DNA of 64,000 bases from an uncultured Chloroflexia bacterium (GTDB lineage: Bacteria; Chloroflexota; Anaerolineae; Anaerolineales; Anaerolineaceae), in assembly GCA_963752685.1 (NCBI GenBank), contig CAVVZR010000008.1, forward strand, positions 1,931,825 to 1,995,824, in the 5' to 3' direction. This document shows, in pieces, positions 27,688 to 64,000 of the stretch. The number at the start of each line of letters is the position of its first letter. Positions within the stretch are counted from its first letter, which is position 1. The position numbers were made by a program, and so were the translations under genes. The notes beneath the pieces are model-generated. The model saw only the letters and a program-made list of their open reading frames with translations, made no database searches and was not told where the DNA came from.

Positions 27688-30600
27688 ATGCGCAGCGAAA
27701 AGCCCCTGATCAACGAAAATTTTACCCTGGTCCAGCCAGATGGCACGACGCTTCAGGTTGGCTCGCTGCATTGGTACGCCTGGCTGTCCGACCACCACAG
27801 ATTTGCCTTTAGAAACTGCGATGGTCATTTTTATGCCCAACGAGAGCTGCGCCGCCAGGAGGCTTACTGGTACGCCTACCGCAGGCGCGGGGGCCGCTTA
27901 TTTAAGATGTATCTTGGCAAATTGGGTGATCTGACTCGTGAACGCCTCGAACAGGCCAGCCAATACCTTTCCGGCCAAACCCCACCGGCAAGCGCGCCGC
28001 CTCTCCTGACCTCCGGCGAGCTGGCGGCTGCCCTAAACAAACCGGCTTTGCTCCCGCCTCCGGGGACGAGTGGGCTGGAACCCTCCCTTTCGATCTTGCC
28101 CCTTACGAAGATTAAACCGCCATCCCTGCCGGATAACCTCATCACCCGCCCGCGATTGATCCGGAATATCAAACAGCCGGTCACCATCATCCATGCCCCC
28201 AGTGGTTTTGGCAAAAGCACCCTGCTGAATGAATGGCGGATCACCTGCGGTTTTCCGGTAGCCTGGGTTTCATTGGACGAGAGTGACGATCAACCGTTAC
28301 GCTTCTGGTCCACCATCGGCCTGGCCATGGAAACCATTATTCTCAATTTCAATTTGTACTTTCTTGGCTATCTGCGCACACATGTCACCAACGATCTCAC
28401 CGATGTTGCCGTTGGCTTTATCAACGAAATTATTCATGCAACCGGTATGGATGACGAGAACACCCAGATCGGCCTGGTGTTGGATGATTACCATCATATA
28501 CGGCGGGCTGAAATCCACGCCTCCCTGCAAGTTTTATTGGAGTATCTACCTATCAATCTCCACCTGGTGGTTTCCAGCCATACCCGCCCGCCTCTTTCCA
28601 TGGGTCACCTGCGCGCAATGGGAAAAATGACCGAATTGACCATTGATGATTTACGCTTCACGGTCGATGAGGGCATCACCTTTTTAGGGCAATCGGTACC
28701 TGGCCGCCAGTTATCTTACGACCAGCTGCGTGCCCTTGTGCGGCATTCTGAGGGTTGGATTGCCGGTCTCAACCTGGCCACCCTGGCCCTGGCTCAACCG
28801 GGAGACCAAAACCAGCTCATCGATGCCTTCAGCGGCGCCCATTCCTATCTGCGTGAATATTTCATGGAAAGTGTGCTGTATCAACAGCCGCCGGAAATTC
28901 AGTCTTTTCTCTTAAGAACCGCGATCTTGAAGCACCTGACCGGTCCTTTATGTGATGCAGTCACCGGTCAACCTGGGGGAACCGCTACCTTGTGGCGCAT
29001 CTTTCAGGACAATCTCTTTTTAGAACGGCTCGAAGGCCAGAATTGGTACCGCTACCACGATCTGTTTGCGGAGATGCTTTGCAGCCAACTCCAGATACAG
29101 TTCCCTGGCGAAATCCCCTTGCTGCATCACCGCGCGTCTCAATGGTACCTTGAACAGAACGCGCCGGCCGATGCGATCTATCACCTGATCGCCGTACAGG
29201 CGTGGGATGAAGCAGCCGCTTTGATCGAATTTATGGCTCTGCACGAGTTGGAACAGTTTGGCGAAGACTCGCGCTTGCTGCGATGGCTGCAACAACTACC
29301 CGAAACCATTGTCCAACAGCACCAGACCTTACTCTCAGTTTATATCCGTCTGGCCGGGGTGGCCCTTCCGGCCGCGGATGTCGAAAGCTTCCTTACCCGG
29401 GTGGAAGCCAATATCACCCAAAAACCTGCCGATCAGTTGAGCCCGGCCGAACAGCAGGTGCTCATCGATTTCCCAACAATTCCGAGGTATGATCGGAGCC
29501 GGCGATCCGGTGGTCTCGCCCTCTTCTACCGGCGAGGAGCACGAAACCTCCTGGCAGTTGCTCAATGGGGTGTTGGCCTACCATCGCAGTCATAGCTTAA
29601 AAATTGAAACCAGCGCCGCGATGGCGCGAGATGTTTATGAAACTGCTCGTGCAAAACGCAACCTGTTCGTTATCTTGATAGCCGGCGGGGGTTATGCCAA
29701 CCGCATTCTCCTGCAGGGGTTCTTGCGCCGCAGCGAGCGCATTGCTCGCCAGGTGCTCCAACAAGCCGTAGACCTGCGAGGGACGCTCCCAGAACCGGCC
29801 AGCATTGCCCTCAGCGTGCTCAGCCAGGTCAGTTATGAGCGGAACGATGTAGCCCGAGCCCACCAACTTTTGATGCGTGCAACCGAGGTAGACCCTAACC
29901 CCACCAGCACCAATGCTTCCATCACGACAGCCATCCTCCGGGCGAAAATACAAACAATTCAAGGCGACACCGAAGCGGCCCTCACCACCCTCCAGGTCGC
30001 GCGCGAACTGCACAGCCGGCGGCCATCGGGTGTGTGGATCGATCAGGATCTTATTGCCTACCAGGCGCTTACCCGCCTGCGCTGCTCAGAGTGCAATGAT
30101 GTCGAATTACTTTTAGGGGAAGCCGAGCTAGCCGAACCGCATCCTTTTTCCAAGTATGTGCATGCCGAGATCTTATTATTCCAGGAACAGTACGCGACCG
30201 CCGAAGACGTGCTGATTGAGCTCATCACTCAATACCCACATGGTTTCTACTCTGAACCGATACTCAGCTCACGGGTGCTGCTGGCAGTAGCCTATTTTGA
30301 ACAAAAAAAATATAACCAGGCCCGCCAGGCGATCCTAGAAGCCCTACGCTCCGCCGCGCCGGAAGGTTTCATCCGCCCATTTCTTGAGCAAGGTTACCGT
30401 CTGATTCCGCTGCTCAATTTGGTGCTGCATAGTGAAACCCTCACCCCGGAAGCGCATGCCTTTGTCAAGGATATCTTACGCCTCTCCGTGCATACAGGGC
30501 AGTCCTCTGCCGTAATTCCCATCGAAAACCTGGAGGCGCTCTCAACTGCCGCCTCGATTACATCGCGCGAACAAGATGTCCTGCGCATGCTCGAGGCTGG

Positions 30601-30742
30601 TTTTTCCAATCGAGAGATCGCAGGAAGATTATCGATCTCAGAAAGCACCGTCAAAACTCATTTAGGCAATATCTTCTACAAATTAGGGGTTAACAACCGC
30701 ACCCAGGCCGTCACCCAGGCGCGGGAGCTCAACCTGGTTTAG
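27688..30742 (+). CDS. LAL/MalT-type large ATP-binding LuxR-family transcriptional regulator; split by a frameshift near 29480-29530
   Basis: N-terminal STAND/AAA region with Walker A PSGFGKSTLLNEW. A long TPR-like helical middle follows. C-terminal LuxR HTH: REQDVLRMLEAGFSNREIAGRLSISESTVKTHLGNIFYKLGVNNRTQAV. The two ORFs (27688-29595, 29489-30742) overlap in different frames. Confidence 0.75.
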
Positions 30743-30810
30743 TCCGACTGTCTCATCGGGTTTCATCTTCAGCGTTGTCCGCGCAGATTGTTCGCCTATT
30801 AATTAAATGA

Positions 30811-30837
30811 AGGGCGCCTGGCAGGCGCCCTTCTTCT
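30811..30837. terminator. Bidirectional rho-independent terminator
   Basis: Stem GGGCGCCTG / CAGGCGCCC with a 1-nt loop. TTCTTCTT lies downstream and an AT-rich run upstream, between the convergent LAL gene and the flotillin operon. Confidence 0.65.
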
Positions 30838-35328: not shown

Positions 35329-36785
35329 TCAACCAGCCTGACCCGGATTTACGCGCCGCAGCACCATCGCCTTGATTCGTTTGAACATATTAAACAATAA
35401 TTCCAACTCCACCGGAGTGAGCACTCGTAAAACCCAGGAAATCACGAGATATACCACCAAACCAATCAAAACCAGGACGAAAATATTAATCCCCCGCAAT
35501 AAGAATATGGCGGCTCCCATGATCACAGATGAAATTATCATTCTCAGCAGTGAGGCGCTGCCTAAACCTGCACCAAATTCCTTACGGAAAATCCGGTAAA
35601 ACATTACCGTCCCAACAAATTCGGTAGCCACGGTAACCACCGAGGCGGCCAACAACCCATAGCGGGGAATGAGCAGCAAGTTCAATAAAATATTGAAAAT
35701 TGCCTCGCAGCCATACACCCAGGCAGCCTTTTTCTCGATCTTCATCGCCGTGGTGAAATTACCGCAGATCGAGGTATACATTAATAGTGGTGTATCCCAA
35801 ATCAGGATAGCGAATGCCAGGATGGCCAGATCGAAATCATTGCCGAACAAATAACAAATCAGCTTATCGGACAGAACCATCCCCCCGACCGCAAGGGGCA
35901 GGCCAATTAAGGCGATAAATCTACCGAGCGGAAATACCAGGGTTCAATGGACTTGGGGTCATTGACATGCTCTCGGGCCATGGTGGGCACTAATGCGGTG
36001 ATAAAAGCAGAGGTAAAAATCAATAAACTACGGGTCAACGTATAAGCGGCGTTATACCACCCCACTACGTCTTTTGAAAAATAATTGCCCATGATGAGGG
36101 TATCGAAGCGGAAAGCGAAGGTCAACGATACCTGAATGAAGGCAAACGGCAGCCCAAAGCGCAGCAGGTCAAACCACCGAGCCGGATCCAGATGAAAAGG
36201 CGGCGGTTTCATGTTCTGGCGAATCACCACCATAACACTGATAAAGGTCAGCAGGGGTAAGCTGACCCAGGATGCCACCACCAGCCACAAGAAGCTGGGG
36301 TTGATCAGCAAAAAGATTGTGGCCGCGGCAAAAAAGATCACCTGGCCAAGGACCACAAATATCGATAAGATATCCAGCCGTTCGTAGCCGCCGATTATCC
36401 CTTGCAGCGGGGTTAGAAAGGCCTGGATAAAATAGGTTGAGCTTAAGATTGCGATGGCAATGATCACATCCTGGCTGTAGCCAATATACATCGCGCCCAG
36501 GATGGTGATGACAATGGTGATAATCGCCAATAAAAGGCGTAAAGCAGCCACGTCCCAAAACAAAGACAGAGCCTTCTCCCGGTCACGGGCAATTTCTCGG
36601 CTCATATATTGGGTGATGCCCATATCGCCAATAAAGGAGAAAATCCCCGTCCAGGCCAGGATGATGGAATACTGTCCAAACCCAGTATCGCCTAACTGGC
36701 GGACGATGAAAACGTTGAACAAGAGGCTCAACCCTCGCAACGCGAATTGAGCACCCATGCCAAATAAAGTATTGCGAGCGATCAC
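35329..36785 (-). CDS. Wzx-like polysaccharide flippase (MOP superfamily); split by a frameshift near 35920-35950
   Basis: ORFs 35907-36785 and 35329-35880 are both all-TM. They read as contiguous N- and C-halves of a 12-14-TM Wzx/RfbX protein when a 1-nt shift is allowed. Confidence 0.65.
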
Positions 36786-36851: not shown

Positions 36852-38709
36852 TTAATCAAAAAATTCCCTCATCACCATCTCATAAGTCATCAATGGCGCA
36901 ATTTTTCCAAGGACCCAGGCTTCATTATTCGCCATGTGGCGGTTCATTAAAGAGCGCACAAAACCCTTATCAAAAATCCCTCGCTGCGTCGTTCTAGGCG
37001 AAAACAATAAGTCCTCAGCCCAATCACGCAGCTCATTGCGTAGATAATTCTCATAATCGGCATATAGTAAAGGCCGCTCAGGGATTATTTTCAAGCTTTT
37101 CAAGGTTTTCATCCCCAGCTTTTGAATGCCATGTGTGAATGGCTGAACAGACGGTAAATATTCATGCTTGTCATATGGAATAAGGGATAACTTAGGCATG
37201 CGCTGGGTGATGATCGACCGTAAAATCATTTGATTGCGGCGCAGTTCAGGCCGGATCGAATAAATAAAATCGATTAGATCATAATCCCAAAACGGAAAGC
37301 GAGCCTCCATACTGGATCGTTGGGTGGTGATCATGTGATGGGTAAACCGCCAGCAATGGTTGACCATATAAAAGAATTCCCCCGCGTAATCCTTACGCAT
37401 GTTCCAAAAGCGGGAGAACTGCTCGTTTAATGATTCAAACGCCCTCCATTGGGCTTCCTTGCCAAATTCCGCCGAAAACAACTGGCGCTCTTCTGCATCC
37501 GTCAATCCGGGCCAGGTAAACTCACTGCAAAACTGCTGGTAGGCATGCAACGCCACTGTCTCCCGATCCACCGGATGGTTATAAAACGCGTTGATATGGT
37601 CAGGGTGTCCCATCACCGTGCCACCATCCCATCCAGACAGGTTGACATCCATCATGGGTCGTAAATCTTTGAGCATGGAAATTCCATGCATATGCACCCA
37701 GCTATGAAACCCTTCGGTCAATTGGAAATGCAAATCCACATAATCTCGCACCCAATTGCCGTCAGAAAAATCGAACCAAAAATGGCGGCTGCCGGATGCT
37801 CTGGCAATTTTTTCAGCATAGATCACATCCCGGCAGTCTCGCGCCCCAAAGGTCGCCGTGACCGGTGTGGGCGTGCCTGCCGGAACCAACCCCAAGATCG
37901 TGCGTGAATCCAGGCCACCGCTCAAGAATATTCCCGGCCGGTGGCCACTGACCAGCCGTCCAACCGCCTGGCTTAGTAAATTGCCCACCTCCTCAACAGC
38001 CTCATTGAAATTGACCTCGGGGCGATCACCGATCTGATCCCAATCCCAATACCGCCGCAAGCGCCACTCGCCGGTCATCAGATCAAATTGGCCAACGCTG
38101 CCGTAAGGGAAAAGAGAGATCTCCTCATGGAAAGTCCGTTCCCCCAACAACTGTTGAAACCGTATATACTCGCAAGCCGCGGTCAGGTCTGGTTTTCTAT
38201 CAATTCCCTCCGCGCACAGCACACCTTTAACTTCAGGGGCAAAGACCAATTGCCGGGTTGTGCGATGATAGTAATGAGGGTATAAACCAAAGCGGTCATT
38301 TGCCAGGACGATTTTCTTTTGAGAAATATCGTATATGGCAATAAAAAATGCGCCGTTCAAGTGCCGGGCAAAGTCTGGACCGTATTTTTGATAAACTGCC
38401 GCGATAATTTCTAATTCTGAATAGTTCTTCGCCGTTGGAGCAAACCGTATTTGCCCGGACCAATGCGTCGGTTTTATACAATTCCCCACACAGCCACACC
38501 AAGCAATTCCCATCCTGCGAGATACCCGGCTGGTGTTCGCGGTTAAAGATTCCCAGGCTGATCCTGCCAATCCCCACTAGTTGATCAGCGTCAACGTGGG
38601 TTTCAACCTCATTCCAGGGCATGTGACTCAGCGTCTTTCCTGCCGCTTCCAGGAATTTTATCGGGTTGACTGGGGTTTGAGCGTTGATGAGACCAAATAT
38701 TCCAGCCAT
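36852..38709 (-). CDS. Asparagine synthetase B-like amidotransferase lacking the N-terminal Cys nucleophile; split by a frameshift near 38440-38500
   Basis: The N-terminal ORF (38296-38709) starts MAGIFG (canonical MCGI) and contains WLCGELY. The C-terminal ORF has the PP-loop SGGLDS and typical AsnB synthetase-domain motifs. Confidence 0.75.
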
Positions 38710-40001
38710 ATGTTGTTATAATTTTAACGGATCAGGGCTAATTGACGAATAGGGTGTCTTGTAGCTGACAAAATGATTCATTTTAATAATACAGAAAAAG
38801 CGCTCGACGCAGAAGACATGGCAAACTGCGCGCGGGTATGAGGGCAGTTTGGGCCCGGGATCAAGGCGTTGACGTTGGCCTTCTATTTCGGGATGGGAGC
38901 CAGCGAGCCGAAGATCTTGGAACTTTTTGAGAATGTGGGTGCTGCAAATTTCGGATGGTGAATTGTCGAACTTGCTGATCAAAGACCAGGCGGGCTTTCA
39001 CGCCGAGAAAGATGCGGTCTACGCGGCCGGATTGCGCAGCAGTCCCTGGCAGCAAACTGACGATACCTCACCCGGGTGGATGGCCAAAACCAACATTGTC
39101 ATGTAGTCTGCAACCGGTTTACACGGCTTACCATACCCGCCGACCAAAGAACGTCTGAGTGTTTTGGACGTGTTGCGCAATGGGCGAGTGCGGATCTTCC
39201 GGCTGAATGCGGAAGCTTGGGGTATCTGGAAAATCTGGCGTGGTCGAAAAAAGCTGGCGCACGTTGCAAAGCTGGGCGGCCGAAGGCGGTGAACAAGACC
39301 TTGAAGAGAAAGCTTTCCTGGCACCGTCTGGAAGACAGCTGCGAAATTGAGCCAGCAACAGCGCAAAGCCTGATCGATGCGGCGGCCGTGGCGGCTTACC
39401 ATGCCGAAACCGATTTTCCAGTGGTGCAAGCCTGGTGTGTGATGATGCACCCCAATTCAATTGGCTGAGCGGGAAATGATGTTGTGTTGGACACGCTGGT
39501 CGACCTTCAAGAAGCTTATCCCGGTTGTGGCATTGCACCGCGAACAATTGGCAGATTTTCTGAAACGGTTTTGGGATTACTACGATCAGTTGTTGAGCCT
39601 ATTGCAGAAGCCACCGCAGAAGAAATCTCGCGCCTGGAAACCGAGTTTGACCGCTTGTTCTCGACCACACCAGGTATGACGAACTGGATCAACGCATCGC
39701 AAAAACTCGAGCCAAGAAATCCAGCTTGCTGCTGGTGCTTGAAATATCGAGATTATAACCATTAATAATTTCTTTTCAGAATTTACTTCGCCGGCTGGTT
39801 CTATAACCAAACAAGTCCCGGCTCAAACCACTTTTTCTATCGCCCCGCTAAACAAATAAGAATGTCCGTGATAGGTAAATGCGATAGCCACTCCTATCGA
39901 TCAGGGATTTTTTTTGAGGTTCAGGCAAAAATCCTTGCGCCATCAGTCAATTGGGCCTATATTTCTATGGGTTGCTAAGATATTCCTAGAGAGGTGGTGA
40001 A

Positions 40002-42564: not shown

Positions 42565-42571
42565 AGATACG

Positions 42572-49644: not shown

Positions 49645-49922
49645 TGTCTATCGAATTCCGCAACCGCCTGGAAAGCGGTCTGGAGATAGCGCTTTCCGCG
49701 ACCCTGGTATGGAACTATCCATCGATCAACGATCTGGTCCCCCACCTCGCTGAAAAAATGGGTATTACATTGGATGGTGGCGCTGTTCCCGAGGCGGAGG
49801 TCGTGAAACCTGCCACGGGCTCCCAGGAACCGGCCAACTCAGAGGACCTCAATAACCTCAGCGACGCGGAGCTGGCGGCGATGTTGGATAGTGAATTGGA
49901 CAAAATTGATGATTTGCTCTAA
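49590..49922 (+). CDS. PKS module 1, ACP domain and C-terminal docking helix; offset by one frameshift
   Basis: The LGLDSLMSIEFRNRL phosphopantetheine-attachment motif is present. C-terminal LSDAELAAMLDSELDKIDDLL matches the C-termini of modules 2 and 3. Confidence 0.8.
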   Translation, partial: SARVDLHKPLRTLGLDSLMSIEFRNRLESGLEIALSATLVWNYPSINDLVPHLAEKMGITLDGGAVPEAEVVKPATGSQEPANSEDLNNLSDAELAAMLDSELDKIDDLL

Positions 49923-50065
49923 AGGCCAATTCTTGTTGGAATCCCCTCTGGCTTTGCAGCCTATAATGAAACTAGGCATGCCTCCAACAGGTAAATCTCT
50001 CAACATCGAGCAATTGTTTGGTTGGTTTCATCCCTGCTGTTCGATGACCCAGGAATAAGGTAACT

Positions 50066-53000
50066 ATGACCACCGAAAACGACAACACCACCCAGTTAAA
50101 ACGGGCCTTGCAATCCCTCAAAGAACTTCGACTTCGCCTGGAAAGTGTGGAACGCGCGCGCCGAGAACCTATCGCCGTGATCGGCATGGCTTGCCGCTTC
50201 CCGGGTGGGGCCGATTCTCCAGAGGCCTATTGGGACGTGCTGAAAAATCGGGTCGATGGCATTGTGCCCATCGCCAATTGACCGTTGGGATGCGGCTGCG
50301 CTTTTCGATGCGGACCCCGGGTATCTGGCAAAGTAGCCACTCGCTGGGGTGGATTCTTACCGCAGGTAGACCGATTTGATGCCGCTTTCTTTGGCATCTC
50401 TCCTCGCGAGGCCATCCATATGGATCCGCAGCAGCGTCTGCTCCTGGAAGTGGCCTGGGAAGCATCGAAGATGCCGGTTTGACCTGTTGAAAAGTTGGCC
50501 GGCAGCCGCACTGGTGTTTTTGTCGGTGTTCACAGCCACAGCAGCGATTACTACTTGATGCAGGCCCTAGACCCCGAGGACATCGGACATCTACTCCGGC
50601 ACTGGCACCTCCCATAGCGTAGTCAGCGGGCGAATGTCTTACTGGTTTGATCTGCATGGCCCCAACATGGCGCTGGACACAGCTTGTTTCTTCGTTGGCT
50701 GCAGTCCATCTGGCTGTCCAAAGCCTCCGCAATGGCGAAAGCAATCTGGCGCTGGCAGGGGGCGTGAATGTCATCCTCACCCCGCATTTCACTATGATGA
50801 CCTCAAAAATGCGCATGTTGTCGTCCGATGGACGCTGCAAAGCATTCGATTCGCGTGCGGATGGAATTGGGCGCGGCGAAGGCAGCGGTGTTGTAGTGCT
50901 CAAAGAGATTATCGGATGCCTTGAGAGACGGCGATCACATCCTTGCATTGATCCGCGGTTCAGCTATCAACCAGGATGGCCACTCAAATGGCCTGACCGC
51001 CCCCAACGGCCTCTCCCAACAAACCGTCATCCGCGATGCATTGAAAATGCGGGGGTAAAACCTGAGCAGGTCAGCTATGTGGAGACCCATGGCACAGGCA
51101 CCCCTTTAGGTGACCCGATCGAAGTCGAAGCGCTCAGCGAAGTTTACGGCTCCCCCCATCCTCACGCGTTCCCTGCGTCTTGGGATCCTCCAAAACCAAT
51201 CTGGGCCATCTCGAAGGCGCTGCCGGGATAGCCGGTTTTATGAAAGCCGTGCTTTGCCTTACAAAACGGCACCATCCCAGCCAATTTGCATTTCAACAGA
51301 CTCAATCCCCATATTTCTCTGGCTGGCACTCGCCTGCAAATCGCAACCGAAGAGCGCCTCTGGGAAACGGGCAACGAGCCGCGTCTGGCGGGGATCAGCG
51401 CATTTGGTTGGTCAGGCACCAATGTCCATGTCGTCCTCGAGGAATTTAAACAAGGGGATCGGGAACCCATAGTTCAGCCATCTCATTCCCGGTCGCTCGT
51501 ACCAACTATTTTGCCCATCTCCGCTCGCTCCGCTGGAGCGCTCAAAGAGTTAGCAACGGCATATCAATTGCGATTGTCTCTACCCAGAAATCTCATTGGC
51601 AGATCTTTGCCACACCGCAGCGCTCCATCGCAGCCATCACGAACACCGTATGGCGATTGTCGGTTATACGACAAGTGATATGCTCGAAGCCCTGACGGCC
51701 TTCGAGCACGGTGAGAGCCACCCACGTCTGCAAATGGGTCTGGCGGCCGAAAACCGGAAGCCTGGGATCGTCTTTGTATATTCCGGGGTGGGCGGCCATT
51801 GGCCTGGGATGGGAAGCCAACTGCTGGCCCAGGACCCAATCTTCAGCCACGTGATCGAACAATGTGATGCAGCCTTCCGCCCTTATGTCAATTGGAGTCT
51901 GATCGAACAGCTAAAGGCTGGAAAAGAAAATTCACGTTTCGACGAAATTGATGTGGTGCAGCCCTGTTCGTTTGCGATCCAAGCTGCACTCACTGCAAGT
52001 TTGCAAGCACGGGGGATCATTCCCGACGTTGTCATTGGCCATAGTATGGGCGAAGTGGTCGCGGCATATGTTTCCGGGGCCCTTTCTCTGGAAGATGCCT
52101 CTGCAGTCATTTGCAACCGCAGCCGGCTGATGCGCCGCGTCAGCGGTAAAGGCGCGATGGCCGCTATCGGCCTGACCCGCGAAAAAGCTGACGCGTTGCT
52201 TTCGAATTATCGAACCCGTTTATCCATAGCTGTGAGCAACAGTCCCTCATCCACCGTTCTGTCTGGAGATCCTGAAGCTTTAGAAGAAGTGCTAATAGGC
52301 TTGCGCGCCCAAAACATATTTACGCGCGCTGTCAACGTGGATGTGGCTGCTCACAGCCCCCAAATGGACCCTTTGCGCCCCGAATTAGTAAGTACTCTTT
52401 CCAATATCCACCCCAAAGCCACCACGATCCCGCTCTATTCGACAGTGCTTGCCGGCCCAGTCGACGGATCATCTCTGAACGCAGATTACTGGGGGAAGAA
52501 TTTACGCCAACCTGTGCTATTTTCTTCTACGATCGAGCAAGTAATTGCTGAAGGTTACGATATTTTCATCGAATGTGGACCCCACCCGCTGCTTTTGCCG
52601 GCCATTTCCCAGGCCGTGCGCCCTGAAAACTCTCAAAACAATCCATTGACCCTCCTTCCTACGATGCGCCGGGCCGAGAACGAGCAGACCATCCTGCAAT
52701 CTGTTGCTGCGGGGCTGTACACAGCCGGGGTCTCCGTAGATTGGAAAAAGATTCTCCCCGAACCGGGCGATTTCGTCCACTTGCCGGCCTATCCCTGGCA
52801 GCGTAAGCGCTATTGGATCCAGGTGAAACAAAATGCCTTCGATCCTCTGGCCAATTGGGTCTACCAGATAGAGTGGAAACCGCAAGATAACAATTCCGTG
52901 CCCATCCCCCAATCCCTGGGTACATGGCTGGTCTTCTGTGAAACCAGCGATCCATCTACCCGGGTTTGCTCTTGGCAAACCGGATCAGCGCTTTCGGCGG

Positions 53001-54750
53001 GAATTCTGTTTGTGTCTACAAGGGAAACGGATACGACCAAGAATCATCTGATCGTTTTCGCGTGGACCCACACAAGCCTGAGCATTTCAAAAAGTTGCTG
53101 GGGCAGTGTGTGGCAATTCTCCGGCCTTGCAGGGAGTTGCTTATTCGTGGGGCCTGCAGGCACCCAAAGCCGACCAAATCGATCTGCAACATTAAGAAGC
53201 CCAATCTGTTTTACTGAGGGGGGCGCTCCATCTGGTTCAGTCCCTGGCGGAAACCAATGGCAGCCAGGCGGTAACCCGCGCCTATGGTTAATCACCAGGC
53301 AGGCCCAGCCCGTTGCAGGCGACCGCCCCCTGGCTTGGCGCAGTCCACCTTGTGGGGCCTGGGGCGAGTGGTCGCCTTTGAACATCCCGATTTATGGGGC
53401 GGCCTGATTGATGTCGACGACATGCCCCCGATAAACTCCTCGCCGATCTCAGTGGGGAACCCGATCAGCAAATCGGGTTCCGCCGGGGAAGGCGCTATGG
53501 GCTCATCTGTTGCGCCAGACCATCTCCTCCCTCGACCTCCACCTGACCTTACTGCCCGATGCCAGCTATCTGGTAACCGGGGGGCTGGGCGGCCTGGGGT
53601 TAAAAGTGGCCAATTGGTTGGCAAGCCACGGCGCCAAACACATCGCCCTGATGGGGCGCAGCAGCGGCTCAGAGGCCGCACGCCAGGCGGTTCAGGCGCT
53701 GAGATCCGCGGCGTCCAGGTGCCATGGTCCAGGGAGATGCCAGTCAACCGGAGGATCTCCACCGAATTCTGGCTGAAATTTCGCAGGCAATGCCTCCGCT
53801 GCATGGCGTGATCCATGCCGCCGGCGTTGTGGAAGACGCACTTTTGGTGCGCCAAAATTGGGCCGGCTATGAACAGGTATTCGCCTCAAAAGTAGCCGGT
53901 GCCTGGAACCTGCACGAACTCACCCAGGAGTTGCCGCTTGATTTCTTCGTGCTGTTTTCTTCGGCGGCATCGCTCCTAGGCACACCCGGTCAGGCAAACT
54001 ATGCCGCCGCCAACGCTTTTATGGATGCGCTGTCCTTTGAACGCCATGCTGCCGGCCTGCCAGCCCTGTTGATCAATTGGGGCGCATGGGATGAAGTGGG
54101 GATGGCCGCCGGCAGGACAGCAAGCCGCCTGGCCCGTTTGGGCATTGAAAGTTTCTCACCGGAAAAGGGGCTGGCTGGCTTGGGACGGCTGATCCACCAG
54201 CGGCGCCGCAGCCCTTGTGCCTCGATGAAATGGGAGAAATTCACGTCCAAGGCCCGGGCGGCTACACCTGCTTCTTTCTTCTCCGGCTTGACGCGGAACG
54301 ATGCACCGGCAAAACCTCCGCCTGATCAACGAGGAGAACTCAAAGCATCCTCCAGCTGCTCGAATCTGCCCATCCCGCGCGCGCGCAGATTTGCTGGGCA
54401 GCCATATCCATAAAATCGTGGTCAAGGTACTTTCCTATGACAGCAGCCAGACATTGGCTCACGACCAGGGTTTCTTCCAACTCGGGATGGATTTCGTTAA
54501 TGGCATGGACCTTAAAGAAAGCCTTGCAAAAGAGCCTGGCCGGCTCTTTACGCACTACCTTGGCGTTTGATTTCCCCAGTATCAACCTGCTCACCCAGAT
54601 ATTTCTAACCGAATTGTTCCCCCAGCAGACACGTCGCCGAAGAATCGCCGCCCCCCCCTTCGATCACGACGAAGCATTGGACGAACTACCCACGAGGAAT
54701 TGAAATCGATGCTCGATATTGAAATGCGAAGTTTGGAAAACGACCTATAA
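50066..54750 (+). pseudogene. Type I PKS module 2 (N-docking-KS-AT-psiKR/KR-ACP-C-docking), fragmented by at least 10 frameshifts. This is either a genuine pseudogene or a low-quality sequence region
   Basis: Domains are readable only by hopping frames. [23 protein letters not shown]...[45 protein letters not shown] and GHSMGEVVAAYVSG are present. There is no DH between the AT and psiKR (LAQSTLWGLGRVVAFEHPDLWGGLIDVDD). KR motifs YLVTGGLGGLGLKVA and FFVLFSSAASLLGTPGQANYAAAN. ACP remnant, and the docking tail [18 protein letters not shown]. Confidence 0.7.
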
Positions 54751-54755
54751 AACTT

Positions 54756-57700
54756 ATGCCTGATAAAACCACACCCACAAACGACCTAGACCAATTGAAA
54801 CGTGCTTTGAGCGCGTTGAAAAAAGCGCACGCTCGCATCACCGCCCTTGAGCAAGCGCGTTCAGAACCGATTGCCATTGTTGGAATGGGCTGCCGCCTGC
54901 CAGGTAAAGCCAACTCGCCGCAGCATTCTGGCAGCTGCTGCGCGAGGGCCGCAGCGGAATGACCCAGGCGCCTGCAGAGCGTTGGGATACAACTGCTTTT
55001 CAGGCATCCTCCCCAGATGAGCCGGGCAAAATGCAGTCATCTTTGGGTGGTTTTATCAACAACGTCGACCAGTTCGACCCCCATTTTTTTGGCATTTCGC
55101 CCCGCGAAGCCAATGCAATGGATCCCCAGCAGCGCCTGACGCTCGAAGTGGTCTGGGAAGCGCTCGAAGATGCCGGTATTGTCCCTGCCGGCCTGGCCGG
55201 CAGCTCCACCGGTGTTTTTATTGGGATCGGGATCAATGATTATGGTCGCTTGCAGATCCCCGCGCAGGCTGGCTGACCCCAGCATGATCGACAATTACTT
55301 CCTCCAGGGAAATGCCTTTTGCATTACCCCCAATCGCGTCTCCTACGCGCTCGACCTTCAAGGCCCCAGCATGGCGATCGACACCGCCTGTTCAGCATCC
55401 CTGGTCGCCATTCATACTGCCTGTGCAAGCCTTCACAACGGGGATAGCTCTCTGGCCCTTGTCGGCGGCTCGAACGTGATGCTCGCTCCCGATAAATCGA
55501 TCGGTCTGGGAAAATTTTTCGCACCAGATGGCCATTGCAAAGCCTTCGATTCTCGAGCCAATGGTTATACCCGTGGCGAAGGCTGCATTATCTTGGTACT
55601 GAAAAGGCTGTCCGATGCCGATCACGTCCCATGACCGCATTTATGCGCTGATCCGGGGCAGCGCCATAAACCAAGATGGCTTCAGCAGCGGTTTGACCGT
55701 ACCCAACGGGGTAGCCCAGGAAGCCATGCTGGGCACAGCCCTAAAAAATGCCGGTCTCGCAGCCAGGCGATATGGATTATATCGAAGCTCATGGTACCGG
55801 CACTTCTCTGGGCGACCCAATTGAAGCCAATGCCCTGGGGCAGTTTTTGCCAGCGGGCATAAAGCCGGCGCAGGAACTGCTCATTGGTTCGGTAAAAACC
55901 AATATTGGTCATCTGGAAGCCGGGCAGGCATCGCGGGCTTGTTCAAGATTGTCCTGGCCCTGTACCACCGGGAAATTCCACCCAGTTTAAATTATATTGA
56001 ACCCAATCCCATGATTGACTTTGCTACCCTGCGCCTAAGGTGGTCACCCAATTAACGCCCTGGCCGCAGAGCGACCACCGCCCCGCGCAGGGGTCAGTTC
56101 CTTTGGATTTGGCGGGGCCAATGCACATGTGATTGTTGAAGCCTTTCCCGATGAACTGTACCTCCGCGTCAACCATGCCCTGCAACGGACCGCAAGCCAT
56201 CTACTCACCCTATCGGCCAAGACCCCCAAGCTCTCACCCAATCCGCCCAAAATTTGGCAACCTTCTTGCGCGCCAACCCTGGGCTTGCCCCGGAGGATGT
56301 TTGTTACACCGCCAACCGGCGCCGTTCGCATTTCACTCACCGTCTGGCGTCGTCTCCCTGACCGGCCCGGATTTGCCAAATCTGGACGCATTCGCGGATG
56401 GCAAACCCGCTCCAATGGATCAGCGCTCAGGTTCAGCGCGCCAAGCAAAGTCGCTTTTTTATTCACCGGTCAGGGCTCGCAATATGTAGGCATGGGTACC
56501 CCGCTTTTCAGACACAGCCCGTTTTCCGTGCCATTATGGATCGCTGCGCCGCCATCTTTCAGCAGGAGACGGGCGAATCGCTGTTCGCGATTCTCTATCC
56601 GGCTGAAACCACTCTGCACCCTCCAGGGTACGAGGAACATTAAAAATCAACCATACTACTTACACCCAACCAGCGCTTTTTGCCATCGAATATGCCCTGG
56701 CTGAGCTATGGCGCTCCTGGGGGGTTGAACCCGCGTGGTGATGGGGCATAGCATTGGTGAATATGTGGCAGCATGTGTTGCCGGGGTCATGAGCCTGGAA
56801 GATGGCATGAATCTGGTTACGGCCCGCGGCCGGCTGATGGGCGCGCTGCCCGAGGGGGGGTGATGGCAGCTGTCTTCGCCCCTCTAGAACGCGTCCAGCA
56901 AGAACTAGCGGCCCTTGGTTTCGATCGCGGCCATCAATGGCCCTGATAGTATCGTCATCTCCGGTGCTCCGCTGCCGTGCAAGAAATATTGGACCGGTTC
57001 AACGAGCAGGGCGTCCAAACCCGTAAATTGGTCGTCTCTCACGCCTTCCATTCCCCGCTCATGGATCCAATACTGGATGAATTTGAGCAGGTGGCGGCCA
57101 CCTGCCCGTTTCACCCCCCAGAATTCCTCTGATCTCCAATATCACCGGTCGTCCATTTGCATCGGGCGAAATTCCCGATGCGGCTTACTGGCGCACACGT
57201 CCGCTCAGCAGTCAATTTTGCCGCCGGAATGGGCTGCACTGCATGACTTCGGGATTTCTACATCCTGGAGACAGCCTCACCCGGCCCTGATAGCCTCGGG
57301 AAGCGCTGTATTCCGGATGAGCGTGATGATCCTACCGGAGGGTGTAAAAACCTGTGGCTGCCTTCTCTGCGTCAAGCGCAAATCGATGACCTGCAAATGC
57401 AAAAAAGCCTGGCAGCTTTCTACTGCCTTGGTCAGGAAATAGATTGGGCCGCGGTAGAGAGTCAGCGCCCGGGCAAACTCACCACCTTGCCCACCTATCC
57501 CTTCCAGCACGAGCGGTTCTGGTTCCAGACCTCTACTGAGGGGCGTTCACCAAAATCTTCCCGCAGCCACTCCGCTCCCTCCGAACGGCCGCTTCTCGGC
57601 AGCCGCCTGCGCTCTCCCCTGATCAAAGACATTGTCTTTGAGACGCACATCGATGCCCAATCGCTCGGTTATTTGTGGGACCACCGCGCTTTTGGCACGG

Positions 57701-60700
57701 GCATTTTCCCGGCCAGCGCTTTCGCCGAAATGGGCCTGTCTGCCGCAAGTATTTTGGATCCAGACCTGCGCTATGTGTTGGAGGATCTGACCATCCAGGA
57801 TTCATTGATCCTGCCGGATGAAGGTGATGTCACCTTACAAATCGTCATCGCCCCGGAAGCAGACGGCCAGAAGACCCTGAAGTTTTTCAGCGCCTCCACC
57901 ACATCCTTGAAAGAGGAGAATAACGGTTGGACGCTTCATGCCTATGCGAAGCTCAGGCCGTCCACCGGTCAACCACCAGATGCCTTCAGCCTCTTCCAGG
58001 CCCAAAGCGCCTGCCCGAACCCAATCAACCCACAGGAATATTATCAATTCCTCAATCAAATGGGAATGGAATATGGTCCGGCTTTCCAAAATATACATAT
58101 GCTCTGGCGAGGCGATTTACAAGCACTTGCTCATGTGCAGCTCCCAGGTGAAACCCCTACAGCCGGATACGTCATCCATCCTGCGCTGCTGGACGCGTGC
58201 ATTCAGACGATCGGCGCGACCCTACCCGACACGCTCGAGGTTTTCCTCCCCCTGGCATTCGAGCAAATCGAGTTGATTGCCGATCCCGGCTCCGATGTGT
58301 GGAGTCATGTGCGCATCTATCCTGGTGAGAATCCCAAATCATTTAATTGTGACATGACCCTTTTTGGCGTCGACGGGCAAGAAGTGGGTCGCATCACCGG
58401 TCTGCGTATGAAGCGCGCCACACGATTGTCTATCCAGCGCCTGGTCCGACGCAGCCCCGGCCACTCATTGTTCGCCGATTGGCTGTACCGGATGGAATGG
58501 CACAAGCAAGCGATCCAACCTGACCCGACACCCGGTGCTCTCCCGACCCGCTGGTTGATCCTGGCGGAAGATGATTACTACGCAGGTCTGGCTTCATTGA
58601 TTCCTGGCGCGCTGATCGCATCTCCCGCAGACGCCATTCGCCAGACCACTGCAGACCGGTGGGACTACAATCCCGCACGACCTGAAGATTTTTCATCCCT
58701 GATCCAGGCCACCCAACCCGAGGGAGTTGTTTGCCTTACGGGCGATCTTCAAACGGCTTTGCATCTGCTTCAGGCAGTTCTGTTCCTTGGGCTCGACCTC
58801 GCCCCAGGTCTGGCTCGCCACCTCCGGCCCGCCTCGTGCCCAGCCCGTTCTGGGCGGGGAATCCGGCGCGGACAACCTCAGTCGTTTCCCAGGCAGGATG
58901 TCCACGGGCCTGGCGCGTTCTGACTCGCCAGGAGTACCCTGACCTCCACTTGCATCCTGGTCGATCTTGATCCGGCTTCTTTACCCTGCCGTTGCACAAT
59001 GTACAGCAACCTTCTGCACTTAAATCCAGAGTTCAGGACAGCGAAACAACGAGGTAGCCTACCGCAACGATATGCGTTACGTGTCGCTGCTGGAGGTGGT
59101 ACTTGCTTTTTGCATGCCACTAAATTTAGGAGCTTCTCCGGTTAGAGATCACCGAGCGCGGCACCATCGATGGTTTTATTCCTGAAGCCCCATGCAGCGC
59201 GATCCGCTGTCTGCCGGCGAGGTTGAGATTGATGTTCGTGCAACCGGCTCAACTTCCCCTATGTGCTCAATACCCTCGATATGTATCCGGGCGATGCCTG
59301 CTTGTTGGGGCAGAGTCCAGCGGAATTGTCACTGCGGTTGCTGGTGCTGACACCCATTTTTACCCGGGTGACCCTGTGTTGGGACTGGCAACGCGAGTTT
59401 TGCCTCCTTTGCAGTGGCCCGGCCGAATTTGTCGTCCGTAAACCTGTAAATGAGCTTCGAACAGGCGGCCACCATCCCAATCGCATTTCTAACCGCCGAA
59501 TATGCCTTCAACACCCTAGGAAAGATCGAGCCTGGCGAAAGAGTGTTAATTCATGCCGCGGCCGGCGAGTCGGCCTGGCGGCGGTCCAACTAGCAAAATT
59601 AGCAGGGGCGAAAATTTATGTTACCGCCTGCTCGCCCGAAAAACGCGCCCTGTTACAAACTATGGGCGTGAAGATGTATGGATTCCCGTTCGTTAGCATC
59701 TGCGATGAAATCCTGCTCGAAACTGGCGGCGGGGAGTGCACATAGTGCCCGATTCCCTGGCGGATGACTTCATCCCCGCCAGTTTCGACGTTCTCCGCCC
59801 GTGCGGGCGATTCCTGGAAATCGGCAAACGCGGGATCTGGACTTATGCGCAGGTGGCAGCGCTCGGGAAAAATATCGCTTATCACATCATTTATTTGGGC
59901 GAGGTGACCGAGCAGGATTTACAGCTTATAGGCGGCCTGTTCGGGGGCTTCATCGCTCAATTTAAAAATGCGGCCCTTCATCCGCTCCCTATCGCGTTTT
60001 TCCATTCTACCCAGGCAGCAGATGCCTTCCGGTATATGGCCCAGGCGCGTCACGTCGGCAAGCTTGTTCTCACTCAGCCGCCATCTCCACCCCGCCTCCC
60101 CCGCAGATCCTACCTGATGCCATCTGATCTCTGGTGGCCTTGGTGGCATTGGCCTGACTGTCGCCGGGCAGTTGGTTGAAATCCGGAGCCCGCCCTGATT
60201 CTTGTGGAGCCGCCGTCCCCCTTCCGCCGGGGCCCAAGCCGTTATCGCATAGATCCAGGCGAATACATCAGAACCGGTCGACGATCACCCCGCATCAAGC
60301 GGACATGAAGGATAATGCCCAGGTTCAAAGCCTGTTGATCTGATTGAAAAAGACATTACCCCCCCGCCGGGATCATCCATTGCCGCCGGTGTGCTACATT
60401 GATGGGGTATTCCCCCACCAAAATTGGTCACGCTTCCCAGGTGCTCGCCCCCCAACCTTAACGCGGCCCTCCACCTGCACTGCCTGACGGCACATTTTTC
60501 CCTGGATTTCTTTGTGATGTTTTCCGCGGGGCTGGCTGGTCTGGCACTGCAGGACAAAGTGGCTATGCCGCAGCCAATACCGCGGTAGATGCCCTGGTCT
60601 GATTACCACGGGGCGCGGTTTACCGGCGGTCAGCATCGCCTGGGGGGACTGCCAGGTAGGCATGGCGGCCCGCATGAACAAAGCAAACCAGGGAACGCTT

Positions 60701-61342
60701 GAGCCGGCAGGGTTTCTGGCATGATCGCCCCGGAAGAAGGCGGGCAGATATTCGATAAGACCCTCAGAAAAGCACGGCGCGTTGGTGTACTCCCGATAGA
60801 CTGGCTGAATTTTGCGACGCGCACCCAATAGCCCCCGCGCTTCAGCGAACTCGGCGGGACCTCCGCGCAACCGCCAGCCTTCCTCCTTCCGCCAACCCTC
60901 CGGCACAAGATAATAATCGGGGGCTAACCAAAGCCCCCCTGAATAAACGTAAACCACTGCTGCAAGCCCATGTGAGCGAACAAGCCATGCGTGTTGGGGT
61001 AAGCGCCACCTATAAACTAGATTTCGCCCAGCCGCTGCGCGAAATTGGCATGGATTCCTAATGGCTGTCGAGTTGCGCAACGTCATCTCCGCCAGCTTTC
61101 AGCTCAAATTACCTTCCACCCTGCTATTCGATTACCCCACTATCGATGCGCTCACGTCTATCTGACAAGCGAGATTTGGCCAAGCCCTTCGCCACAGCCG
61201 TTGCGCAAAACCAAGAGAAATCAGCTCAAAATAAAACCGCTCGAACGCAGCCGAAATCCAAGACCTTTCCGACGATGAAGCCGAAGCAGCGCTCCTGGCC
61301 GAGTTGGAGAAACCAAAGCGCAAAGAAAAGGTGCCTGCATGA
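54756..61342 (+). pseudogene. Type I PKS module 3 (N-docking-KS-AT-DH-psiKR-ER-KR-ACP-C-docking), heavily frameshifted
   Basis: [52 protein letters not shown] motifs [34 protein letters not shown] motifs [30 protein letters not shown]: the 57397-58923 ORF with WDHRAFGTGIFPASAF. ER remnants GEVEIDVRATGLNFPYV and [27 protein letters not shown] remnant DFFVMFSAGLAG. ACP remnant LGMDS|LMAVELRN. Tail LSDDEAEAALLAELEKP. Confidence 0.7.
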
Positions 61343-64000
61343 CCTCCGATTCCTCCACCCCCGAACTATCCCCAATCAAACGCGCGTTGATTGAAATTCG
61401 CAATCTGCGTGCGCGGCTTGACCAATTGGAAGAGCCCAGAACGAACCAATCGCGATCATCGGCATGGGCCTGCGCTTTCCAGGCGATGCCAACGATGCCG
61501 ACAGCTTTTGGCAGATTGCTGCATGACGGTGTGGATGCGATCACCGAGGTTCCACCTGAAAGGTGGAGCCTGGAAGATTCTACGATGAGGATGTTTCCAT
61601 CCCGGGAAAAATGACCACGCGCTACGGCTCGTTTATTAAAGAATATCGACCAGTTCGATGCGGCATTTTTCGGTATTTCCCCCCGCGAAGCCATCAGCAT
61701 GGATCCGCAGCAGCGTCTGCTGCTCGAAACCAGCTGGGAAGCGCTAGAAAATGCCGGCCAATCCACCGAAAAACTGCTGGGAACCCAGACCGGTGTCTTT
61801 ATTGGCATTTCCAACAGCGACTACTTTCGCATGCTGATCAGCGACCCGCGAGAAGATCGACACCTATGCTGGCACCGGCGGCACATTGAGCGTCGCGGCC
61901 GGCAGGATATCCTATTTGCTCGGGCTGCAAGGCCCGGCAATGGCGGTGGACACAGCCTGTTCATCCTCGCTGGTCGCCCTTCATCTGGCCTGCCAGAGCC
62001 TGCGCCACAAGGAATGCAACCTGGCGCTGGTGGGCGGGGTGAACCTGATTTTGTCGCCCGAAATCAATATCAACTTCTCCAAAGCCGGGATGATGGCGCT
62101 TGACGGCCGCTGCAAGACCTTCGATGCCCAGGCCGATGGCTATGTGCGCGGCGAAGGCTGCGCCGTGGTGGTGATCAAGCGCCTGTCGGATGCCGTCGCC
62201 GACAGGGACAACATCCTGGCGGTGATCCGCGGATCGGCGATCAACCAGGACGGCCGCAGCAGTGGGTTGACCGCGCCCAACGGCCCATCTCAGGAAGCTG
62301 TCATTCGCGCCGCGCTGCGGTCTGCCCAGGTGTGAGCCGCAGCCAGGTGGGCTATGTCGAGGCGCACGGCACCGGCACCTCCCTCGGCGATCCGATCGAA
62401 GTGCGCGCGCTCGGCGCGGTATACGGATCGGGCCGCGATCCCGCCATCCTTTACAGGTCGGCTCGGTGAAAACCAACATCGGTCATCTGGAAGCCGCCGC
62501 CGGGATAGCGGGTGTGCTCAAGGTGGTATTGGCGTTGCAGCACGGAGAGATACCGCCTCATCTGCACTTTTCCACGCCCAACCCGCACATCGCCTGGAAC
62601 GAATATCCCGATCGAGGTGCCCATAAACTGCATGCCCTGGCAGCCTCTGGAAGGCCGCCGCCTGGCCGGGGTTAGTTCCTTTGGATTTAGCGGCACCAAT
62701 GCCCATATCATCCTCGAAGAGGCACCCGCGCCTGAAGCGCTAACTGAAATGCCGGATGCATCTGGGTCAAAGCCAACGGCCGATCTCAACGATACTGGTC
62801 GCGCTTTGTTGTTCTCCTTTTCAGCCCGGTCTGAAAGCGCCTTGCGAGATCTGGTCAAAAATTATCAAAACTATCTCTCCACCAGGTCGCTTTCTGCGCC
62901 GGAAATGCAAACTCTTGCCCACACCCTATCCGCCGGCAGGACGCATTACACCCAACGCCTGGCAGTCGTCGCATCCGGCTCTGCGCAACTGAACGAACAG
63001 TTGGCCGCCTACACCGCCAATCAAAAAACAGCCGCCTGGTGGAAAGGTAAACAGCCGGGCAACACCGCGCTTCCCGTCGTCTTTTTATTCACAGGTCATG
63101 GTTCGCATTACGTCAACATGGGGCGCGAGCTGTATGAAAGTGTGCCTATCTTCCGCCAGGTTATGGACCAATGCGATCAACTGCTGCGCGCCTACCTGCC
63201 TGTTCCCCTCTTATCCGTGCTCTATCCAACACTCACCGAAGCTGGCAGCGACCTCACCACGCAGGCCAACTTAAACGATATGACCTATGGCCAGCCGGCC
63301 ATGTTTGCCCTGGAATACGCCCTCGCCACCATGTGGCGCTCTTGGGGCATCGAGCCGGCCGCGTTGGCGGGTCACAGCCTGGGCGAATATGCGGCAGCCG
63401 CCTTTGCGGGTGTGCTCAGCCTGGAAGATGCCCTGCTGTTGATCGCGGAACGTGGGCGCTTGATGCAGCAGCTCCCCGAAGACGGTCTGATGGTCACGGT
63501 CTTCGCCGACGAAGAACGTGTGGTAGCCCAGGTGGAGCCCTACGCAGCCGAGGTTTCTATCGCGGCGATTAACAGCCCCGAAACCATTGTGATTTCCGGC
63601 CGGCGCGAATCCGTGCAAAAGGTGGTAGATCAGTTGACCGCCCAGGGAATTCGTACTCGCCCATTGAATATCTCCCGCGCGGCGCACTCCCCAATGGTCG
63701 AAGCCATGCTCCCCGGCATCGCCGAGACAACTGCCCACCTGCGTTTCGCTCCACCCCAAATCGAGTTCTTCTCAACCGTCACCGGTGAGGTGATCAGTGA
63801 GGGTCTCACCCAACCTACCTACTGGCAGCGCCATTTACGCCAGACGGTGCGCTTCGCCGATGCCGTGCAGGCCCTTTACTCTGCCGGATACCGTTGTTTC
63901 CTGGAGATAGGCCCTCATCCAACCCTGATCAACCTGGGGCAGCGCACCATCAGCGGGGTCGATCCGGTCCTTTGGCTGCCTTCCCTGCGCGAAAATCAGC
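61339..64000 (+). CDS. Type I PKS module 4, partial at window end. The KS carries several frameshifts; the KS-AT linker and AT read as one open frame from ~62668 to 64000
   Basis: [33 protein letters not shown]...[20 protein letters not shown] (frameshifted), [65 protein letters not shown]: [38 protein letters not shown]. Confidence 0.75.

Follow-up and report, generated by a model that had tools for sequence, protein, structure and literature searches.

PKS modules and frame changes in the window

The window, by which we mean the whole 64,000-nt stretch of DNA that was analysed, lies on a contig of 2,139,131 bp, and its plus strand from 43,356 to the end carries a cis-AT modular PKS identified by Pfam matches, with genes for a type II thioesterase and a 4'-phosphopantetheinyl transferase on its 5' side (Table 1). 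According to the ORF list, stop-free stretches are long until 48.4 kb and broken up between 48.4 and 62.5 kb. After frame correction, each module has KS, AT and ACP domains with their catalytic motifs (Pfam, corrected translation), and the module 2 gene comes to ~1,546 codons, close to the 1,568 aa of its orthologue in a related Anaerolineae contig (L082). Scans of the window with Rfam and for tRNAs gave no matches.

Table 1. Features of the window, with positions counted from its first nucleotide
Feature	Position	Strand	Basis
5TMR-LYT/PAS histidine kinase, one extra base near 16,549	15,127–18,136	+	
LAL/MalT-type regulator, two overlapping ORFs (overlap 29,489–29,595)	27,688–30,742	+	
Wzx-type flippase, one base missing at ~35,923	35,329–36,785	−	orthologue comparison
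AsnB-like asparagine synthase, one extra base at ~38,451–38,460	36,852–38,709	−	orthologue comparison
Type II thioesterase, open, 5' of PKS	41,773–42,564	+	Pfam
4'-phosphopantetheinyl transferase, open, 5' of PKS	42,386–43,387	+	Pfam
Module 1, first part: KS-AT-DH, frameshift-free, closed by in-frame TAA	43,356–47,024	+	Pfam; 75% aa identity to L082 orthologue
In-frame TAA in conserved FYxIxW motif, between DH1 and KR structural subdomain/ER1	47,022–47,024	+	
Module 1, second part: ER-KR-ACP	47,061–49,922	+	Pfam, alignments
Hot zone, ~75 frame changes of one base each, 5.4 per kb	48,436–62,602	+	frameshift-aware alignments, ORF fragmentation
Module 2 gene: KS-AT-KR-ACP, N-terminal docking helix, 21 frameshifts	50,066–54,703	+	
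Clean island, AT2, 1.4 kb, 0 frameshifts	51,582–52,959	+	Pfam, event distribution
Module 3 gene: KS-AT-DH-ER-KR-ACP, ~41 frameshifts	54,756–61,338	+	
Clean island, DH3, 1.6 kb, 0 frameshifts	57,197–58,798	+	Pfam, event distribution
Module 4 gene: KS-AT..., continues past window end, 8 frameshifts until 62,602, clean after	61,339–64,000	+	

Frame changes were called by frameshift-aware protein-to-DNA alignment, with 685 homologous PKS proteins from 80 related loci as references. The hot zone lacks a base at ~47 sites and has an extra base at ~28, and 49 of these ~75 frame changes are backed by at least three concordant reference alignments; event size is one base throughout, with a single exception which resembles a two-base deletion. 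A first-pass annotation, made from the sequence alone, had reported a concentration of frameshifts in modules 2 and 3, and this is borne out more strongly than claimed, as 21 fall in module 2 and ~41 in module 3, compared to 4 in module 1 and 8 in the module 4 KS. Individual sites were also recovered: the module 1 events at ~48,436 (+1), 49,271 (+1), 49,312 (−1) and 49,593 (−1) include the two which it had placed at ~48,433 and ~49,595, the events called at 50,274 and 50,689 match its sites at 50,278/50,279 and 50,687–50,689, and its compensating pair at 50,279–50,345 corresponds to 50,274/50,321. The densest patch of module 3 (KR3, 60.1–60.7 kb) has 11–16 indels, a larger number than was counted at first.

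The frameshift-aware alignments contain no frame change at 43,356–48,435, and none at 62,603–64,000, in agreement with the earlier description of the module 4 AT as clean. The KS-AT-DH part of module 1 had been called clean as well, which is true with regard to frameshifts, but it terminates at the in-frame TAA at 47,022, where homologues have Gln, Glu, Asp or Lys. An ATG at 47,061 lies in the same frame, 12 codons 3' of this TAA, and the natural stop of module 1 is the TAA at 49,920. It is improbable that this TAA alone is real; it would then divide module 1, naturally or as a recent event, into one KS-AT-DH and one ER-KR-ACP protein, and an independent in-frame TAA in L082 would echo it.

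Only four frame changes were found in the remaining 43 kb outside the hot zone and the PKS flanks, and the contig background away from the hot zone is ~0.1 per kb. Were the clean 5.1 kb of module 1 hit as often as the hot zone, they should contain 27 events, yet none was observed (P = 1.5e-12), and the 1.4 kb of AT4 is likewise free of events (P = 5.6e-4). The clustering is thus genuine and uniform error is excluded, as the first-pass annotation had argued. Within the hot zone the events are patchy, with a chance of 2.5e-4 for so large a second-largest gap, and both its edges are intragenic, the 5' edge in the ER/KR region of module 1 and the 3' edge in the KS-AT linker of module 4. The clustering counts equally against the neutral decay of an assembly line whose modules depend on each other, because a dead module 2 would free the module 4 AT and module 1 to decay at an equal rate, and because neither edge of the hot zone coincides with a gene boundary.

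Single frameshifts elsewhere in the window had been proposed for four genes. For the Wzx and AsnB-like genes the proposal is confirmed, with −1 at 35,923 and +1 near 38,455, by comparison with two intact orthologues each (for Wzx 89% aa identity in the sibling assembly L081 and 76% in L082; for AsnB both of 618 aa). Removal of one base near 16,549 from the histidine kinase gene, close to the suggested position 16,548, yields a PAS fold that is complete, covering profile positions 2–113 of 113. The two LAL ORFs fuse without stops by one +1 shift, whereas no Pfam match bridging their junction was obtained, and this split is consistent with a frameshift, not proof of one.

Lesion spectrum and sequence context

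Real pseudogenes have conserved-site substitutions, nonsense codons, multi-base or large deletions, and decay across the whole released unit. We compared this with KS2, KS3, KS4 and AT3, which together contain 32 frameshifts (10, 7, 7 and 8, respectively). Not one of their 197 nearly invariant columns (58+58+58+23, each at least 95% conserved among 113–121 homologues) is changed, and the KS Cys/His/His, AT GHSxG, KR YAAAN and ACP DSL motifs are all present. A substitution:indel ratio of 3:1 predicts 8.7 violated columns (probability of zero 1.6e-4), and a ratio of 10:1 predicts 28 (P = 6e-13), which argues against genuine pseudogenisation at any ratio of three or more (P ≤ 1.6e-4). Apparent conserved-site violations in KR3 resolve into additional indel pairs, and after frame correction no shortened or truncated domain was found, all domains being full length. 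In-frame stops (at 47,022, 53,193, 57,244 and 60,196) are few: 3–6 in the hot zone have alignment support, versus ~75 frameshifts, which is compatible with a substitution:indel ratio near 1:1 and not with 5–10:1. Because of these few stops, and of a pN slightly higher in KS2 than in KS1, a few substitutions, either real or erroneous, may be present in the cluster.

Homopolymer-type error, one of the explanations listed in the first-pass annotation, is only weakly supported as a label for the indels. Deletions are modestly enriched near runs of at least 5 bases (11 observed, 5.3 expected, p = 0.01), whereas insertions show no enrichment near homopolymer runs and the majority of indels lie outside homopolymers, unlike in classic homopolymer error. 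None of the 4-mers or 5-mers was enriched at the indel sites after multiple testing, and methylation- or motif-linked systematic error was rejected for this lack of k-mer enrichment. Programmed ribosomal frameshifting and transcriptional slippage were also rejected, with ~75 sites, no common k-mer, few homopolymers and an orthologue in a single frame, as were, within the window, intra-window repeats left unpolished, since self-BLAST gave a module-to-module DNA identity of only 64–81%.

Comparison with related genomes

The orthologous cluster in L082 was located via the neighbouring AsnB gene; it is syntenic, with ~70% nucleotide identity. While the best other relatives in a scan of genome contigs are only ~50% identical, with no orthologue among them, the L082 locus reaches 75% over KS-AT-DH. 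Comparison with an orthologous cluster had been suggested as a check, and it favours a technical explanation: module 2 of L082 is intact in a single frame. In the comparison of module 2, which is limited to the initial 1 kb of the L082 gene, the window KS2 (first 346 aa of the module) is 82.6% identical to L082 despite 8 frameshifts in 770 nt. The 998-aa L082 protein was not among the matches of a protein search meant to extend the comparison into modules 2–4, matches in such searches being at most ~1.75 times as long as the query. Against L082, pN is 0.096 and pS 0.68 for KS2, and pN is 0.062 for KS1; as dS is saturated (pS ~0.7), only pN/pS is usable and the test is a coarse one. With 83% amino acid identity in KS2 and pN far below pS, relaxed selection is not indicated. 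The L082 orthologue has an in-frame TAA of independent position, 45 codons upstream of the equivalent of 47,022.

In L081, a glycosyltransferase gene has 9 frameshifts and 3 stops in 500 nt, within ~1.1 kb of the contig end, and the PAE gene has 2 frameshifts. Both of these genes are intact in the window.

Origin of the frameshifts and likeness to known systems

The frameshifts are real in the deposited sequence, yet they are very probably errors of base calling or consensus that affect one part of a long-read assembly, and not the result of decay. We favour consensus error over mutation because almost all lesions are indels, the orthologue is intact and L081 shows a similar patch. One-base indels that leave constrained sites untouched, and a distribution which follows technical units in its intragenic edges and patchiness, also point to an artefact. 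The 2.14-Mb contig and the Flye-style names (contig_32728) of the relatives' contigs in ENA make it likely that the source, an Anaerolineae genome or MAG, was assembled from long reads, probably Nanopore ones. Over ~14 kb (48.4–62.6 kb) the reads available for building or polishing the consensus would have been too few or in conflict, with a local drop in coverage, a draft-quality stretch left by the polisher, or piled reads of diverged co-occurring strains as candidate causes, and the outcome would be patches with 0.5–2% single-base indels. Gene-fragmenting consensus indels are documented for MAGs of low coverage and for assemblies of Nanopore or PacBio CLR long reads (PMC9262707; PMC12007338; PMC12313526), among them coverage-dependent indels that break genes in Nanopore assemblies and bins below 40x coverage (PMC9262707) and similar ones in Nanopore-only Flye+Medaka soil MAGs (PMC12313526). 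Of the three explanations between which the first-pass annotation did not choose, the technical ones are backed by the indel-only spectrum, the intact orthologue and the sibling patch, and genuine decay is not.

Collapsed strain heterogeneity, a sub-case of the technical explanation in which reads of two or more co-occurring strains that differ in this accessory cluster are merged into a chimeric, mosaic consensus with spurious indels, is possible but rather unlikely. BGCs often differ between strains, and the patchy events, clean islands and sharp edges agree with this reading; the ENA contig names of the relatives suggest a metagenomic origin, and microdiversity has been reported as a limit on such assemblies (PMC12313526). 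Merged strains should however also leave a mosaic of substitutions, while the conserved residues are untouched (synonymous mosaicism being invisible here), and among 5.8 billion proteins there was neither a second allele nor a near-identical contig, the next AT2 match being 61% identical.

Mis-polishing through ambiguous mapping of long or short reads from paralogous PKS modules, near-identical and located in another part of the genome, is unlikely. The cluster extends past the window end, and KS domains, the most conserved ones of a PKS, are among the dense patches (KS2, KS3 and KS4); KS1 is nevertheless clean, the affected parts include KR3 and non-conserved linkers, and the modules within the window share only 64–81% DNA identity. 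As an indirect test, AT2 being a clean island, the sole database protein to exceed 61% identity with it is the source's own 100% fragment.

It is very unlikely that the assembly line was recently inactivated and that modules 2 and 3, with parts of 1 and 4, are gathering real mutations in a silent cluster. The frameshifts as deposited would abolish each module from module 2 onwards, a TAA interrupts the otherwise clean module 1, a few more in-frame stops lie inside the hot zone, and four other genes of the window carry single frameshifts. Set against this are the unchanged conserved residues, full-length domains without large deletions, the module 4 AT and a 5.1-kb part of module 1 that are event-free up to intragenic edges, islands of 1.4–1.6 kb that stay clean, a retained signature of purifying selection, the intact L082 orthologue, and the similar patch in an unrelated gene at a contig end in L081. 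Equally improbable is that the indels are real and mark a very recently silenced PKS, in which a local slippage-prone or repair-deficient state might have acted as an indel-specific mutational process before substitutions gather.

Since the indels look like consensus errors, we most likely have an intact cluster here and for that reason an ordinary finding, with no new biology. In practice it serves as a warning: the output of gene callers and BGC miners will show the locus as a pseudogenised cluster or as dozens of PKS fragments, and the public protein collection already contains such fragments (e.g. a 585-aa AT2 piece and a 458-aa ER piece), whereas the frame-corrected locus is a normal cis-AT PKS of at least four modules, conserved in a related Anaerolineae genome. 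Conserved-residue integrity relative to frameshift count, the stop:frameshift ratio, the position of edges relative to gene boundaries and orthologue comparison are reusable tests of artefact versus decay which do not require reads.

The locus resembles long-read assemblies with consensus indels in its one-base events, deletion excess, overlapping ORFs and otherwise perfect protein similarity, in a megabase-scale contig over which single frameshifts are scattered as a background, and in a probable dependence on the local depth of evidence, L081 having a patch at its contig end. It differs from published cases in that errors are ~50-fold concentrated in one 14-kb stretch, and from the emphasis of the literature on homopolymer indels in that they are mostly outside homopolymers. 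With decaying BGCs and pseudogenes of reductive genomes it shares large multidomain genes that contain numerous frameshifts and a few premature stops, whereas the conserved-site substitutions, multi-base or large deletions and whole-unit decay of those systems are absent here. Judged from the corrected translation, the underlying cluster is an ordinary and probably functional cis-AT modular PKS of single-module proteins: it matches type I systems of this kind with docking domains in its module order, in the coiled-coil or docking-like N-terminus with which every gene opens, in the upstream type II thioesterase and 4'-phosphopantetheinyl transferase, and in its intact catalytic motifs, the TAA at 47,022 being the only unusual feature found.

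Frame changes in the PKS genes

For alignment, the PKS region (43.2-64 kb) was cut into overlapping segments. The references were the best of 685 proteins obtained by translating 80 related PKS loci, and the program was our own local protein-to-DNA aligner, which permits frame changes (penalties: frameshift -14, stop -8, affine gaps) and was checked on a toy case. A vote-based path through the alignments contained 76 frame changes, all between 48,436 and 62,602 (the hot zone). The change called at 49,919 is in fact the natural stop of module 1, and this reduces the total to about 75, with a base missing at about 47 sites and an extra base at 28; at least three concordant references stand behind 49 of them. 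The concentration of frameshifts in the PKS is thus confirmed, and is stronger than the first-pass annotation had noted. No frame change was called in 43,356-48,435 or in 62,603-64,000, which shows that the aligner does not over-call and agrees with the earlier description of the module 4 AT as clean, while for the KS-AT-DH of module 1, also described as clean, this holds for the reading frame but not for an in-frame TAA at 47,022.

Within the hot zone the rate is 5.4 per kb, reaching 10-12 per kb in some stretches, and at 5.4 per kb the clean 5.1 kb of module 1 would escape every event with a probability of 1.5e-12. The hot zone is itself patchy, with clean islands at AT2 (51,582-52,959) and DH3 (57,197-58,798) (probability of a second-largest gap of such size 2.5e-4), and KR3 (60.1-60.7 kb) showed 11-16 indels once the frameshift penalty was lowered. 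After frame correction the region encodes four single-module proteins (M1-M4, see table), with a docking-type helix at the start of M2, M3 and M4. The catalytic motifs are all present (KS DTACS/HGTGT/NxGH, AT GHSxGE, KR YAAAN, ACP GxDS), and none of the domains in corrected M1-M4 is shortened.

Gene content of the window and PKS modules after frame correction
Feature	Content	Position	Strand
Ordinary genes	DegV protein, GT2 glycosyltransferase, ammonium transporter, Opp-type ABC importer, GH3 enzyme, PAS histidine kinases	up to 27 kb	
Regulator and exopolysaccharide (EPS) block	LAL/MalT-type regulator, then GT4, Wzx, AsnB-like; pectin-acetylesterase-like gene (PAE)	after 27 kb	
Accessory genes	type II thioesterase (TE), PPTase	downstream of PAE-like gene, upstream of PKS	
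PKS	cis-AT modular PKS	from 43,356	+
M1	KS-AT-DH-ER-KR-ACP	43,356-49,922	+
M2	KS-AT-KR-ACP	50,066-54,703	+
M3	KS-AT-DH-ER-KR-ACP	54,756 to about 61,338	+
M4	KS-AT...	from 61,339	+

Spectrum and distribution of the lesions

In bacterial mutation spectra, base substitutions are several-fold commoner than indels. We aligned 91-121 homologous KS, AT and KR domains and took columns conserved to at least 95% as test sites. Despite carrying 10, 7, 7 and 8 frameshifts, respectively, KS2, KS3, KS4 and AT3 had no conserved column changed (0/58, 0/58, 0/58 and 0/23), whereas real mutation at three substitutions per indel would be expected to change 8.7 columns (P(0) = 1.6e-4), and at ten substitutions per indel 28. 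Only 3-6 alignment-supported in-frame stops occur in the hot zone, against an expectation of 7 at 3:1 and 23 at 10:1. Five apparent violations of conserved columns in KR3 all adjoin called frameshifts, and mostly vanish when extra compensating indel pairs are permitted, by which for example the GIIHAAGV motif is regained.

The homopolymer-type error proposed for these sites has weak support: deletions near runs of at least five bases are modestly enriched (11 vs 5.3 expected, p = 0.01), but most indel sites are non-homopolymeric. Deletions outnumber insertions, and there was no k-mer enrichment at the indel sites, nor were there repeats above 81% identity within the window. Both edges of the hot zone lie within genes, as it starts in the ER/KR of module 1 and ends in the KS-AT linker of module 4. 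Since a single broken module releases the whole assembly line from selection, neutral decay should be uniform, and the in-gene edges and clean islands therefore speak against it.

Related loci and the remainder of the window

Exact AT2, AsnB and ER fragments each had one match in a 5.8-billion-protein collection, their common source being an NCBI and ENA contig of 2,139,131 bp. The G+C content of the window is 50-62%, and the AsnB-like homologues, where named, are from Anaerolineae or Anaerolineaceae. Via this neighbour gene we reached two syntenic loci, L082 (ENA ERZ25039495, contig_32728, 921,909 bp) and L081 (a 22-kb ENA contig of the closest relative). L082 has the gene order of the window (GT4-Wzx-AsnB-PAE-TE-PKS) at ~70% nucleotide identity, and provides the comparison with an orthologous cluster that had been suggested: in L082 an unbroken ORF of 1,568 aa encodes module 2. 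Between window and L082, KS-AT-DH has 75% identity and zero frameshifts, ER-KR-ACP 62% and four frameshifts, and the first 346 residues of KS2 82.6% with eight frameshifts in 770 nt (KS2 pN 0.096, pS 0.68). In the DNA alignment the frameshift sites appear as isolated one-base gaps, with a net change of -2 in one place, the KS2 active-site motif. A 500-nt part of the L081 GT4 gene (13731-14205), ~0.6-1.1 kb from the contig end, contains 9 frameshifts and 3 in-frame stops, and the PAE gene of L081 has 2 frameshifts (8920/9275); neither gene is broken in the window or in L082. The dense GT4 patch is probably an artefact of the same kind as the hot zone.

Module 1 is free of frameshifts around the in-frame TAA (47022-47024), which takes the variable position of a FYxI[QEDK]W motif, conserved and located between DH and the KR structural subdomain/ER; an in-frame ATG follows 12 codons later. 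L082 has Gln at this position; a separate in-frame TAA occurs in L082 45 codons farther upstream, in the DH C-terminus (about 4101-4103, minus strand), so that gene calling splits the L082 module 1 in two as well (1,145 + 998 aa). The two stops could be independent substitution errors, real nonsense mutations or tolerated splits.

Outside the PKS the frameshifts are single (4 in 43 kb). Those reported earlier in AsnB (+1 near 38,455) and Wzx (-1 at 35,923) were confirmed against the same two intact orthologues, and the histidine kinase regains a full PAS fold if one base is dropped near 16,549. The two ORFs of the LAL regulator can be joined with no intervening stop, but no domain spans their junction. 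The N-terminal 635-aa part of this regulator (27688-29595) has no significant Pfam domain (AAA_22 at E = 0.039 only) and a MalT-like LCDAVTG...WYRYHDLF motif at its C-terminal end; this part either is a divergent NTPase domain or holds more unrecognised errors.

The gap between the AsnB-like and PAE genes (38710-40001, ~1.3 kb) contains no ORFs other than short, overlapping ones, which occur on both strands, and no Pfam, Rfam or tRNA match. As the spacing in L082 and L081 is only 260-330 nt, the extra DNA represents either inserted sequence or a gene specific to the lineage. In the window, a PPTase gene (42386-43387) separates the thioesterase from the first PKS gene; L082 has no PPTase in its 166-nt TE-PKS gap (7540-7706), and a comparison with the window PPTase showed no similarity. 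L081 has a Transposase_mut gene (6283-7758) between PAE and thioesterase, followed downstream by a PKS with only ~40% identity to module 1 of the window; at this position the closest relative by EPS genes (77-82% nt) therefore carries another PKS.

Origin of the frameshift cluster

In all likelihood the frameshift cluster is no real biological feature. Judged from these alignments, the hot zone is most likely a poor-consensus stretch of a long-read assembly, which may stem from shallow local coverage, draft sequence that was never polished, or a mixture of strains. Low-coverage error and collapsed strain heterogeneity, both proposed in the first-pass annotation, are supported as artefact in general by the indel spectrum, the distribution, the orthologue and L081, but this evidence does not separate one such cause from another. 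Genuine decay of modules 2-3 is disfavoured by the unchanged conserved columns, few stops, in-gene edges, clean islands and intact L082 module 2, and we regard decay of the PKS cluster as very improbable. Biologically, the locus is predicted to be an ordinary cis-AT PKS with a conserved counterpart in a related Anaerolineae genome.

Consensus errors of this kind are known from published work: indels in Nanopore consensus sequence lead to gene calls broken by frameshifts, and extra polishing is needed for bins with less than about 40x (PMC9262707). In large sets of soil MAGs from Nanopore data alone, made by metaFlye assembly with one Medaka round, there is a coverage-related drop in coding density (PMC12313526). 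From the 2,139,131-bp contig and the naming of the relatives' contigs we infer that the window comes from a long-read project of this kind. The poor-consensus stretch resembles the well-known gene-fragmenting indel artefact, but differs in being ~50-fold concentrated in one stretch and mostly non-homopolymeric.
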